This document shows, piece by piece, positions 687 to 11,752 of a stretch of 64,000 bases of DNA. Position 1 is the stretch's first letter. Every line of letters starts with the position of its first letter. A program made the translations under genes and the position numbers. Origin of the DNA: Escherichia phage WPEC5; the sequence record PV654397.1; one strand, 5' to 3'. The notes beneath the pieces are model-generated. The model ran no database searches, was not told the origin of the DNA, and saw only the letters and a program-made list of their open reading frames with translations.

Positions 687-701
687 TAAATATAGTATAA
701 T
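687..701 (+). promoter_or_regulatory. promoter-like motif TAAATA-N3-TATAAT
   Basis: conserved block ATTAAATATAGTATAAT 17 nt upstream of ATG, followed by AAAGGAGGG RBS. Confidence 0.5.
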
Positions 702-718
702 GAATAAAGGAGGGAATT

Positions 719-1909
719 ATGTTACCTTTTGTTAGAATGTTTGATTATGGGAATATCACACCTGAACCTCTTCAAATTAAGAAAATAATACCAACTGATA
801 CTGAGGTTGTTGTACTTTATACCGACGGTCAACTATACGCACGAGGCAGTAATAGTTATGGGAAGTTTGGTAGAGGAAATAATAATGCAGTAAGGTCGTG
901 GACATTAATTAGAGAAAATGTCAAAGATTGCTGGATGACACAAGGAACTTTGTTAGTACAAGATAATGACTTAAATTATTTTTATTGTGGATATGGTAGT
1001 CATATTGGTTTACCAACTAGTACTACTACGTTTTTAAGTTATAACCAATATATTGAAAATTTGTACACACAAAGTTCAAGTACTTCAATTAAACAGATGT
1101 ATGCAGGTACTACGTGGTTTACTTTCTTAATGGATAATAATACAATATGGAGTACAGGGTGGAATAGTGCTAGACAATTCGCAGATGGTACAGGAACTAC
1201 TTATCAAATATCAGATGGTTCATTTGTTAAAGCGGTAACACCAGATGTTGATATTGCACAAATAATGTCAACATATAACTGTGTAATGTTGTTTGATAAA
1301 CAAAATAATTTATATATTGGTGGTAGTACATCTGGCATAAGTACTAGTACCACATGGACACCATTTAATGAATATACTTTATATCAGCCAAGTACCACAT
1401 ATACAAAAACATTACAATATACTGTTTGTTCATTTGGTGCTGTCAGTGCTTTAGTAGAGAATCCAAGTACAGGAGCACGTCAGTTTCTAGTTGGTGGATT
1501 AGCTAATAATGGAGCATGGGGAAATAAAACTACATCTAGCACTGTTAATGGAGTTTTAGGAAATAATAGTGCTACATTACCACCCGGTACTTTGTATTCA
1601 ATTCATACTGGATACCCAGCACAATCTAGTATACTAGTTACGAGTGCAGGTGTATATGCAACTGGTTTAAATGCGAGTAGTTATGCTGGCACATTGGGTG
1701 TTGGTTATGATGCTACCATTGGTAAATTTACTGCATGTCCATTGCCGTCAGAAATAACATATTCTATGTATGATAAAATAAAAATATATCGCGGTTCGTT
1801 GCGTACTTTCCTAACTGCTGATATGAAAAATATATATTCAACCGGAACTTATGATGATGGTGGTCCTAGTACAAATAGATATGTTCTGGATACACCTAGA
1901 CAATTGTAA
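719..1909 (+). CDS. RCC1-like beta-propeller repeat protein, array paralog
   Basis: strong RBS; N-term MLPFVRMFDYGN; blades such as GSNSYGKFGRGNNNA. Confidence 0.9.
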   Translation: MLPFVRMFDYGNITPEPLQIKKIIPTDTEVVVLYTDGQLYARGSNSYGKFGRGNNNAVRSWTLIRENVKDCWMTQGTLLVQDNDLNYFYCGYGSHIGLPTSTTTFLSYNQYIENLYTQSSSTSIKQMYAGTTWFTFLMDNNTIWSTGWNSARQFADGTGTTYQISDGSFVKAVTPDVDIAQIMSTYNCVMLFDKQNNLYIGGSTSGISTSTTWTPFNEYTLYQPSTTYTKTLQYTVCSFGAVSALVENPSTGARQFLVGGLANNGAWGNKTTSSTVNGVLGNNSATLPPGTLYSIHTGYPAQSSILVTSAGVYATGLNASSYAGTLGVGYDATIGKFTACPLPSEITYSMYDKIKIYRGSLRTFLTADMKNIYSTGTYDDGGPSTNRYVLDTPRQL

Positions 1910-1916
1910 TGTAAAA

Positions 1917-1945
1917 GCCAGTACTTGATACTGGCTTTTCTTTTT
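1917..1945 (+). terminator. intrinsic terminator hairpin GCCAGTA-CTTGA-TACTGGC + T-run
   Basis: perfect inverted repeat followed by TTTTCTTTTT. Confidence 0.7.
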
Positions 1946-1949
1946 GTAT

Positions 1950-1964
1950 TAAATATAGTATAAT
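1950..1964 (+). promoter_or_regulatory. promoter-like motif TAAATA-N3-TATAAT
   Basis: same conserved block as 687-701, upstream of RBS and ATG 1982. Confidence 0.5.
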
Positions 1965-1981
1965 GAATAAAGGAGGGAAAT

Positions 1982-9856: not shown

Positions 9857-9871
9857 TAAAGGAGAAAAAGA

Positions 9872-11008
9872 ATGTTACCTTTTGCAAGAATGGTTAAGTA
9901 CGGGAATATAAAAGTAAAGAGTACTATCCAAAAAGTTATCCTTGGTGGTGGTGGTCAATGTGTGGTAACATTACTCAGTGATGGTAGAGTGTATGGACGT
10001 GGATACAATACAACATATGGGTTGGGTACTGGTACAACAACATTCGTAAGTGATTGGGTATTAATGGGCGATAATATTGTTGATATCCATTCAAATGGTG
10101 TTACTGGCACATTCCTTATTACCAAAGAAAATAGAATTTTGTATTCTGGTTTTGCGACACCAATCAATGGCACAACATCACATTATACACGTTTCACTGA
10201 TTTAACATCAACTGTATTTGCTGCGGTGGATGTTAGTAATATTAAAACAATTACGGGAAATGGTAATGTTACAATGGTTCTTTTGAATGATGGTTCACTT
10301 TATGGGAGTGGTGCAAATACAGGGGTTATAGGTAATGGTAGTAACGTTGCATTATCAACACAAACATATGTGACTAATGATGTGCGTGATGTGAAAACAT
10401 ATCCATCAATGAACACTATAACAAAAAATAATAATCAAATATTGGCTAGTGGTATTTTATACCAAGGCGTGAACGGTACAAATTCATCAATAAACACGTC
10501 TTCATATACATTACTGTACACATTACCGAGTTCTGATTGTTTTCAATTTGCATTTGATACATATACATTTGGATATGTTGACCCTAGTACTAACACTTCT
10601 TATATAAGAGGTATACCAATAAATGGTTCATTAGGTAATGGCGTTACTAATAATACAGCAGTTACAACATGGGTTACTAAAGTTTGGAATACACCAATTG
10701 ATAGTTCTATACCTAATAAATCATATACAACTAACCATGTCTCCTTGTTCAATGATGGAAACTTATGGACAACTGGTGCATCTAGTGTAGGTTATTCCAA
10801 TGGTACAAATAGCACAACAGCTAATACATGGACCAGTTCATCTAATTTACCATTCAACACTAATAACATAACAGACTATGCTTTTGGTGGTAGTATTACT
10901 GTAGTGGTAATCGACTACAGGACTATGTACATACTAGCTAACAACGCCATTGCTGGTACTGCTACGACAACTTATAAATTTGAGCCATATAATTCTCCAC
11001 CAGTTTAA
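9872..11008 (+). CDS. propeller-like repeat protein, array paralog
   Basis: N-term MLPFARMVKYGN; YGLGTGTTT; RBS-only junction. Confidence 0.85.
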   Translation: MLPFARMVKYGNIKVKSTIQKVILGGGGQCVVTLLSDGRVYGRGYNTTYGLGTGTTTFVSDWVLMGDNIVDIHSNGVTGTFLITKENRILYSGFATPINGTTSHYTRFTDLTSTVFAAVDVSNIKTITGNGNVTMVLLNDGSLYGSGANTGVIGNGSNVALSTQTYVTNDVRDVKTYPSMNTITKNNNQILASGILYQGVNGTNSSINTSSYTLLYTLPSSDCFQFAFDTYTFGYVDPSTNTSYIRGIPINGSLGNGVTNNTAVTTWVTKVWNTPIDSSIPNKSYTTNHVSLFNDGNLWTTGASSVGYSNGTNSTTANTWTSSSNLPFNTNNITDYAFGGSITVVVIDYRTMYILANNAIAGTATTTYKFEPYNSPPV

Positions 11009-11014
11009 TATAAT

Positions 11015-11043
11015 GCCAGTACTATGTACTGGCTTTTCTTTTA
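11015..11043. terminator. bidirectional terminator hairpin between convergent genes
   Basis: GCCAGTACTATGTACTGGC + T-run; lies between + gene 9872..11008 and - gene 11041..11691. Confidence 0.6.
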
Positions 11044-11691
11044 CATATTATATAATGTGAATGCAGTTACTTTACCAGTTGTTGTTAGTTCATTATAAAG
11101 ATACTCCAAGATTCTCGCACACTCTAAGTATATCTCGATATCATCATGAATAAGTGAGTACTGAAATAGCTGTTCTTCAGATAATTTGTATTGACTTCCT
11201 TTTAATGAATTGAGAATATCTTTCACATCATCAAGTACTGGGTAAAGTACGAAATCTTCATCATATTTTGAAGCAATAAATTCAAATCCACCACCATCAG
11301 TACTAGATATACCAATCAGTACTTTATCAATCAAGTTAATGTTTATATAACGGTTGTGATTTGGGTGAATTGAAATCTCAAACATACGAGTACTGTTACA
11401 ATCAACATCAATATACAAATATACATCGTTGAATTTATAAGTTAAGCAACCGTACTCAAGAAAATCAGAGCAAATAATTGATGAGTTTTTTCTCGTCTCT
11501 GCGTAATGCATCTTGATATTCTTTTCACGCATAAGTAATTCGAACTTTGCACTAAACTTGCCACCAGCAAGATAGTTAGTATTAGGACGTTTGTAACTTG
11601 CAACTGGTCGGTGGGATGATGTAAAGTATTTTTTTGTGAATCGTTTATGTTTAGTGAAATATTCTTGATAGAACTTACTTCTTTTATTCAT
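11041..11691 (-). CDS. hypothetical protein (216 aa) interrupting the array
   Basis: long minus-strand ORF between array genes; no motif recognised. Confidence 0.6.
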   Translation of the reverse strand: MNKRSKFYQEYFTKHKRFTKKYFTSSHRPVASYKRPNTNYLAGGKFSAKFELLMREKNIKMHYAETRKNSSIICSDFLEYGCLTYKFNDVYLYIDVDCNSTRMFEISIHPNHNRYININLIDKVLIGISSTDGGGFEFIASKYDEDFVLYPVLDDVKDILNSLKGSQYKLSEEQLFQYSLIHDDIEIYLECARILEYLYNELTTTGKVTAFTLYNM

Positions 11692-11737
11692 GAGTACCTC
11701 AATTAAATCGCTGTAAAATTGTACATTATAAAATGAT

Positions 11738-11752
11738 TAAATAAAGTATAAC
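11738..11752 (+). promoter_or_regulatory. promoter-like motif TAAATA-N3-TATAAC
   Basis: TTAAATAAAGTATAAC 16 nt upstream of ATG 11769; same spacing as array cassettes. Confidence 0.45.

Follow-up and report, generated by a model that had tools for sequence, protein, structure and literature searches.

The window analysed here is a 64,000-nucleotide (nt) stretch of Escherichia phage WPEC5 (PV654397.1), and its subject is a short AT-rich motif, TAAATA-N3-TATAA(T/C), found before genes on its plus strand. By megablast the window belongs with jumbo coliphages of the genus Asteriusvirus (the 121Q / PBECO4 / phAPEC6 / G17 group, 'Rak2-like'), with 97-99% identity to fEgEco12, vB_Ec-M-J and WPEC3 and ~85% to 121Q and PBECO4, and its genes are arranged collinearly with those in the first 60 kb of phAPEC6. 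It holds a plus-strand array of RCC1-repeat genes followed by a long run of small minus-strand genes, within which lie the gene of an RpoD-like sigma factor (40077-41045, phAPEC6 gp066c) and a lone plus-strand gene (45820-46977, gp077). Genome-wide figures for phAPEC6 cover 250 of its 353 kb, up to the last 100 kb.

In its exact form, TAAATANNNTATAAY, the motif occurs five times in the window, always on the plus strand (687, 1950, 3969, 11738 and 45783), against 0.26 copies expected from shuffled sequence. Two further sites differ by one mismatch in the second hexamer (2760, TATATT; 8679, TATAAA). A preliminary description of this DNA had listed these seven sites, placed them 16-22 nt before an ATG and seen no -35 element, and all three points were borne out, the distance from motif end to ATG lying within that range at every site. 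Five copies (687, 1950, 2760, 3969 and 8679) are parts of one duplicated cassette and hence are not independent; some three independent loci remain, for which P(≥3 | λ = 0.26) = 0.0024. The bases before TATAAT at the cassette, outlying and 45783 sites are TAG, AAG or CGT, never TGn. No -35 element is found at the motif sites: in the cassette its position is occupied by the T-run of a terminator, and cassette sites stay below 9/12 in a scan for sigma-70-type TTGACA/TATAAT promoters. The sole 10/12 reading of this type, at 45768-45797 (TTTACC-N18-TATAAT), depends on a TTTACC which is not conserved among orthologues.

TAAATA as the constrained part of the motif

Only the first half of the motif, TAAATA, is constrained, and four independent lines of evidence agree on this. 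On both strands of the phAPEC6 sequence TAAATA occurs 188 times, versus 420-552 times for each of the 14 other hexamers of four A and two T, and is thus 2-3 times rarer than hexamers of its own composition. Within the -66..-7 windows of phAPEC6 genes it is the commonest of these hexamers, with 62 sense versus 8 antisense copies; 33% of all its copies lie in sense upstream windows, a proportion comparable to that of ribosome-binding-site hexamers. The window taken alone has 44 copies versus 89-142 for the other hexamers, 21 of them sense and 1 antisense upstream of genes, and 48% of its copies are in sense upstream windows. The motif is therefore not frequent at random positions, being counter-selected and depleted overall save upstream of genes, where it is concentrated in sense orientation.

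The same hexamer stands out in a footprint of 12 regions upstream of orthologues of the 45820 gene, drawn from the window, phAPEC6 and 10 further phages with protein identity down to 38% and hosts in seven genera (Escherichia, Erwinia, Cronobacter, Pectobacterium, Klebsiella, Salmonella and Xanthomonas). All 12 keep TAAATA unchanged, 25-31 nt before the ATG, and the sequence 5' of it, where a -35 would lie, has diverged. The second hexamer reads TATAAT, TATAAG, TATAAC (at N4), TACACA or GAAATA, with GAAATA or TACACA replacing TATAAT at the orthologous sites of GAP32, XbC2 and Hallingskeid. Across 30 copies of the array cassette (window, UE-S1, G17 and phAPEC6) TAAATA likewise shows no variation; the N3 spacer differs (TAG, TAT, CAG, CTA, CAT, AAG), as do the final two bases of the second hexamer (AT, TT, AA, AC), of which the TATA is constant.

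A weight matrix of 51 non-redundant candidate sites carries information in TAAATA only, together with a preference for A or C one base before it (-12). It contains no -35 information, the relative entropy being ≤0.16 bits at each position from -20 to -2 relative to TAAATA, and A or T predominates at +6..+15 after the box. TATAAY at N3 follows in just 3 of the 51 sites, and the two-box definition of the preliminary description is not supported. A TATA at offset 2-5 is present at 16/51 sites versus 8/118 TAAATA copies elsewhere (p = 7e-5). TATAAT as a conserved second hexamer at a fixed position was accordingly rejected, since the matrix shows no such conservation but merely enrichment of a loosely placed TATA. 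Because the predicted start, ~6 nt past the box, falls inside the second hexamer in the cassettes and at 45783, the second half is most plausibly a good example of the loose preference for TATA around an AT-rich site of initiation rather than an element recognised in its own right.

Genes behind the box on both strands

Some 60 phAPEC6 upstream regions were examined, mostly those of genes listed in its virion proteome (PMC7247149, Table 1). In about 35 of them TAAATA lies 25-50 nt ahead of the ATG, with examples on both strands, and the genes so preceded mostly encode virion proteins confirmed by mass spectrometry. Among them are the major capsid gene gp225c (ctaTAAATAatatcatac, ctaTAAATA), scaffold gp226c, sheath gp277c, baseplate gp244 and fibre gp256. 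The capsid and sheath promoters lack TATAAT, and gp274c carries exactly the pattern first noted (TAAATAaagTATAAT).

In the window the box is found at ten sites, the seven on the plus strand (687, 1950, 2760, 3969, 8679, 11738 and 45783) and three on the minus strand (27184, 28426 and 55104). Other than at 55104, where an HNH endonuclease gene follows, the genes behind it encode virion proteins by a match to PHROG 'virion structural protein', as for 25646-27157 and 28005-28388, and/or by the proteome of the orthologues: RCC1-like gp003, 005, 006, 007, 009, 010, 549 and 551, and likewise gp077, gp035c, gp037c and gp078c, are among the phAPEC6 virion proteins (PMC7247149 Table 1). The boxes at 27184 and 28426 are exact copies of the T4 late sequence TATAAATA. 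Those at 45781 and 55106 read AATAAATA, the A(-13) variant of TATAAATA, and the cassette box, ATTAAATA, deviates from it once, at -12. The motif had been described as confined to the plus strand; this holds for the full 15-nt pattern but fails for the TAAATA core, which occurs in TATAAATA and AATAAATA boxes on the minus strand. The restriction is an artefact of which late genes fall in the window, because minus-strand virion genes there carry exact TATAAATA boxes. Conservation of the motif, its distribution, its strand logic and its link with virion-protein genes are all direct observations of the present analysis.

Probable late promoters and their candidate readers

T4 late promoters consist of the 8-bp TATAAATA at -13..-6, with no -35 and with an AT-rich melting segment downstream. 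A(-13) variants are frequent, positions -13 and -12 vary in relatives such as Aeh1, and late transcripts are of either polarity whilst early and middle transcripts share one (PMC2988020). In T4 it is gp55 that recognises them, together with gp33 and the gp45 sliding clamp. The sites described here share with them a -10-like AT box with a TAAATA core, the lack of a -35 and the AT-rich segment downstream; a box placed 20-40 nt ahead of late or virion genes, whichever their strand, alongside early and middle units of one polarity; and a gp55-family sigma factor encoded by the phage group. Unlike T4, positions -13 and -12 are loose, only A or C being preferred at -12 and T standing there in the cassette; the gp55 homologue has an extra N-terminal extension of ~120 residues and no evident clamp-binding C-terminus; and about one third of the sites have TATA 3-4 nt downstream of the box.

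For phage CBB three promoter classes have been predicted, of which the late 'promoter 3', ATAAATA with an AT-rich tail, precedes 35 structural genes (Buttimer et al. 2017, PMC5259590). The authors likened this motif to T4 TATAAATA, noted a gp55-like sigma and stated that the motif occurs in GAP32, and their late list holds several TAAATA-N3-TAT(A/C) sites (PMC5259590). Both 'promoter 3' of CBB and GAP32 (PMC5259590; Abbasifar et al. 2014) and the window motif are predictions. They have in common (A/C)TAAATA before structural genes and a set of three classes (RpoD-like early, altered -35 with TGnTATAAT middle, and late), and in CBB the 45820 orthologue has aaaTAAATActtTATAAT. The differences are of genus, Asteriusvirus as opposed to Mimasvirus; of the middle-class -35, which here is GG(G/A)ACA and in CBB TGAAACG; and of the duplicated terminator-promoter cassette before RCC1 paralogues, which this analysis encountered only in those Asteriusvirus records that were examined (window, UE-S1, G17 and phAPEC6). 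Host-type sigma-70 early promoters (TTGACA-N17-TATAAT) have a TATAAT-like hexamer in common with the cassette version, but the late class differs from them in its conserved element, in having neither a -35 nor a TG extension and in its opposite strand distribution in the window.

The motif is thus probably this jumbo phage's version of the T4-type late promoter, by which virion-protein genes are turned on. Real and functionally constrained, the signal belongs to an already known kind, and it extends the T4 gp55 paradigm to another genus. The late, T4-like character proposed in the preliminary description finds support in the missing -35, in the position before genes with virion-protein orthologues (PMC7247149 Table 1; PHROG) and in the contrast with the consensus sigma-70 early promoters of the minus strand. 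When the genes are expressed, where their transcripts start and which sigma factor acts are inferred from these observations. The recognised element would be a -10-like box, (A/T)(A/C/T)TAAATA, at -13 to -6 in T4 numbering. The AT-rich segment after it would melt and transcription would start ~6 nt past the box, with +1 predicted near 698, 1961, 3980, 11749 and 45794, inside TATA(AT), and at the remaining sites near 2771 and 8690 on the plus strand and 27173, 28415 and 55093 on the minus strand. As infection proceeds to its late stage, a gp55-family sigma factor of the phage, with its gene outside the window, would redirect host RNA polymerase core to these sites; in phAPEC6 that gene stands behind a middle-class promoter. 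The late transcripts are predicted to have leaders of 16-28 nt at the ten window sites and to run as far as the hairpin terminator that follows. These are precise predictions of start sites and sigma assignment for a group of jumbo phages for which we found no start-site mapping in the literature; knowledge of phage transcription in general is left unchanged.

The likeliest reader is a late sigma factor of the T4 gp55 type. The phAPEC6 protein gp237c bears the annotation 'sigma factor for late transcription'. It has no sequence match in Pfam, NCBIfam or PDB, and its assignment to the family rests on PHROGs (phrog_12791 and phrog_234, 'late sigma transcription factor', 8e-18) and on tblastn matches, with E values as low as 7e-10, to sequences annotated as gp55 in T4-like cyanophages. 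A gp55 homologue is present in every relative searched, including a 95.7% identical gp237c copy in fEgEco12, a close relative of the phage studied here. The gp237c gene lies behind a GGGACA-N14-TGCTATAAT promoter and its CBB counterpart behind a 'divergent RpoD-like' promoter (PMC5259590); because both sit behind middle-class promoters, an early to middle to late cascade is suggested.

Several observations weigh against this interpretation. The gp55-like gene has no counterpart in the window, gp237c shows no obvious sliding-clamp-binding motif at its C-terminus, and the neighbourhood of the clamp loader gene gp152c of phAPEC6 yielded no clamp gene. The CBB authors found no homologues of gp33 or gp45 (PMC5259590), although gp33 orthologues are reported by Iyer et al. 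in group 2 jumbo phages; T4-style activation through gp33 and the gp45 sliding clamp is therefore no more than a possibility. The full TATAAATA is present at just 2 of the ten window sites, and the cassette box has T at -12, a minority base. The constant TATA of the second hexamer among cassettes allows TATA a role of its own. In the 110 nt upstream of the virion gene 47022-47837 (minus strand, orthologous to gp078c) TAAATA is missing. Finally, no mapped start sites or expression-timing data were found in the literature for the Asteriusvirus / Rak2-like group. No published promoter analysis was found for Asteriusvirus, including the Sharanji and fEgEco12 papers, the RaK2 paper has none, and the PA5oct RNA-seq paper reports only TTGAC/TATAATA promoters.

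The preliminary description had proposed as reader the sigma factor encoded at 40077-41045, and it is rather unlikely that the same late promoters are read by this RpoD-like protein instead of the gp55-like one. It is a genuine member of the sigma-70 family, with regions 2 to 4, and the place of its gene in the early region would make it available ahead of late gene expression. Its region 2.3/2.4 (residues ~120-160) is strongly diverged (TYATTTVYMTIYNESAD versus TYATWWIRQAITR..AD, then ...FPRYMSV): other residues stand in place of a conserved tryptophan pair and of the counterparts of Q437, T440, H455 and E458, among them readers of -12 and of the extended -10 TG. To judge from these residues its promoter specificity is probably not that of sigma-70, and because of this divergence it is unlikely to read TATAAT or TGnTATAAT; its -10 target might be another, possibly TAAATA. 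But it keeps region 4, normally the reader of a -35 which the late class lacks; phages with gp55 only (T4, KVP40 and cyanophages) use the same TATAAATA-type box (PMC2988020); and a gp55 homologue is conserved in all relatives searched. The gp55-family late sigma encoded elsewhere in the genus would seem the better candidate. A narrower form of the idea, in which the TAAATA-N3-TATA(AT) subclass (RCC1 array, 45783 and phAPEC6 gp274c) is a composite promoter read by the RpoD-like sigma, is also unlikely; if true, it would constitute a new sigma-promoter pair with a two-box, -35-less architecture, acting instead of or alongside the gp55-like factor.

The perfect -10 hexamer TATAAT at 4 of the 7 plus-strand sites, the 10/12 reading at 45768-45797 and the TATA invariant among cassettes could be taken to mean that TATAAT is an ordinary sigma-70 -10 with TAAATA as no more than AT-rich upstream context, the array being transcribed weakly or constitutively by host holoenzyme. 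This we consider very unlikely: neither a -35 nor a TG extension accompanies the hexamer, it is TAAATA and not TTTACC that orthologues conserve, and TATAAT is replaced in GAP32, XbC2 and Hallingskeid and absent from the capsid and sheath promoters. A start 7 nt past TATAAT would moreover land on the ribosome-binding site, and a relic cassette at 11034-11062, with no gene after it, has kept TATAAT and lost TAAATA. That the motif is mere part of a duplicated intergenic repeat, with no function of its own, accords with the single origin of five of the seven copies and with 'repeat_region' as the sole annotation of the cassette in the UE-S1 record. It is most improbable, and already contradicted by the depletion of the motif overall and its enrichment in sense upstream of genes; there are, besides, independent copies in unrelated contexts (11738, 45783, 27184, 28426 and 55104) and the motif is conserved across genera.

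Transcription map of the window and the RCC1 array

The T4-type late promoter thus favoured is one of three classes, and not two as had been supposed. TTGACA-N16-18-TATAAT matches of at least 11/12 number 31 on the minus strand versus 1 on the plus strand, where ~3 per strand would be expected in random sequence, and perfect 12/12 matches 8 versus 0, upholding the claim that minus-strand genes use such promoters. The third class, GG(G/A)ACA-N14-TGnTATAAT, combines an altered -35 with an extended -10 and occurs on the minus strand at 28491, 55583, 55765, 57828 and 63319. In phAPEC6 it is found at many sites, including those before the genes for single-strand DNA-binding protein, Clp protease and the gp55-like late sigma. 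It corresponds to the 'divergent RpoD-like' TGAAACG class of CBB, from which its -35 consensus differs. Its assignment to the RpoD-like sigma is unsupported given the diverged region 2.4/3.0. Together with at least 10 late promoters on both strands, ~30 host-type early and ~5 middle-type promoters on the minus strand provide a usable transcription map of a poorly annotated 64 kb (Table 1).

Table 1. Positions of promoters, terminators and associated genes in the window
Feature	Position	Strand	Remarks
Terminator hairpin, cassette copy 1	654..672	+	T-run 673-682; ends upstream array gene; -12.6 kcal/mol, z = -5.9
Putative late promoter, copy 1	685..701	+	ATTAAATA (-13..-6, T4 numbering)-TAG-TATAAT over predicted start, +1 ~697-699
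RCC1-repeat array gene	719..1909	+	Putative monocistronic late unit
Terminator hairpin, cassette copy 2	1913..1939	+	
Putative late promoter, copy 2	1948..1964	+	ATTAAATA-TAG-TATAAT
Glycine-rich non-RCC1 array gene	1982..2719	+	N-terminus MLPFAR..YGN
Terminator hairpin, cassette copy 3	2725..2747	+	
Putative late promoter, copy 3	2758..2774	+	ATTAAATA-TAT-TATATT, variant second hexamer
RCC1-like array gene	2792..3922	+	
Terminator hairpin, cassette copy 4	3936..3954	+	
Putative late promoter, copy 4	3967..3983	+	
Putative four-gene late operon	4001..8640	+	4001-5176, 5186-6304, 6317-7465, 7480-8640; 9-14 nt gaps with ribosome-binding site only
Terminator hairpin, cassette copy 5	8647..8665	+	
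Putative late promoter, copy 5	8677..8693	+	ATTAAATA-TAG-TATAAA
Putative two-gene late operon	8711..11008	+	8711-9856, 9872-11008
Array-end terminator and relic cassette	11015..11062	+	TTTTCTTTTACATATTATATAATGTGAAT; TAAATA lost, TATAAT kept, no plus-strand gene after
Putative late promoter, outlying paralogue	11736..11752	+	ATTAAATA-AAG-TATAAC; no upstream hairpin
Outlying RCC1-repeat paralogue	11769..12893	+	
GGTTGACTTCGGTCRRCC hairpins	16249-16266, 18044-18061, 19917-19934, 20640-20657, 24936-24953	-	
GGTTGACTTCGGTCRRCC hairpins, continued	25618-25635, 27199-27216, 27979-27996, 31573-31590, 40051-40068	-	
Exact TATAAATA box	27179..27186	-	Preceded by terminator hairpin; 21 nt from box to ATG of virion gene 25646-27157
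Exact TATAAATA box	28421..28428	-	32 nt before ATG of virion gene 28005-28388; middle-type promoter further upstream at 28491
RpoD/RpoS-like sigma factor	40077..41045	-	Regions 2-4; reader proposed in the preliminary description, probably not the late sigma
Putative late promoter	45781..45797	+	AATAAATA-CGT-TATAAT; TAAATA invariant in 12 orthologous upstream regions
Virion structural protein gene	45820..46977	+	Orthologue of phAPEC6 gp077, seen in virions by mass spectrometry
AATAAATA box then ATATCATAC	55099..55106	-	33 nt before HNH endonuclease gene 54523-55065

The array cassette consists, in order, of a hairpin (GCCAGTAC..GTACTGGC, -12 to -14 kcal/mol), a T-run, GTATTAAATATAGTATAATGAATAAAGGAGG and the ATG of an MLPF... 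N-terminus; the motif and, after it, a strong ribosome-binding site, AAGGAGG, lie between hairpin and ATG. Terminator, late promoter, ribosome-binding site and N-terminal codons appear to have been duplicated as one unit, and because the whole unit was duplicated each paralogue, or group of 2-4 paralogues, would be its own late transcription unit. An expanded family of RCC1-repeat virion proteins may thus be organised as late units with separate terminators. The sequence ..TGGCTTTTC.. just upstream of the motif was considered as a T4 MotA box and rejected, as it is the 3' arm of the terminator with the T-run and its spacing to either box is a misfit. After the last array gene the relic retains a hairpin and a T-run, followed by ACATATTATATAATGTGAAT.

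All ten array proteins, including the glycine-rich one which lacks RCC1 repeats, begin MLPF[AV]R..YGN, the duplicated cassette extending into these codons. Such a common start might serve as a tag for incorporation into virions, or gene conversion may have left it as a footprint; the phAPEC6 array proteins gp003, 005, 006, 007, 009 and 010 were detected in virions.

On the minus strand a composite of terminator and early promoter recurs. Its hairpin, GGTTGACTTCGGTCRRCC, has 10 copies with 0 expected; the 5' arm contains a -35, TTGACT, and the T-run serves also as spacer. An extended -10 follows 6 of the 10 copies (16266, 18061, 19934, 20657, 24953 and 31590), reading TGCTATAAT or, at 31590, TGTTATAAT, and the copy at 27216 is followed by the late TATAAATA instead.

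The HNH homing-endonuclease gene has aaTAAATAatatcatac upstream. The 15-mer of its box, TAAATAATATCATAC, recurs unchanged in phAPEC6 in the promoters of gp228c and of the major capsid gene gp225c, and the late promoter may have travelled with this mobile gene or been captured by it. For the virion gene 47022-47837 the nearest candidate promoter is a middle-like CAGGAAC-N14-TGATATAAT at ~48338, inside an upstream gene. In the divergent region 45731-45826 early-type minus-strand promoters, TTGACT-N17-TATACT (45759-45731) and a perfect TTGACA-N16-TATAAT (45826-45799), stand back-to-back with the plus-strand late promoter and overlap it. Nearly all 12 phages retain, at most with slight changes, the gtcaag that corresponds to TTGAC in the -35 of the promoter at 45759.

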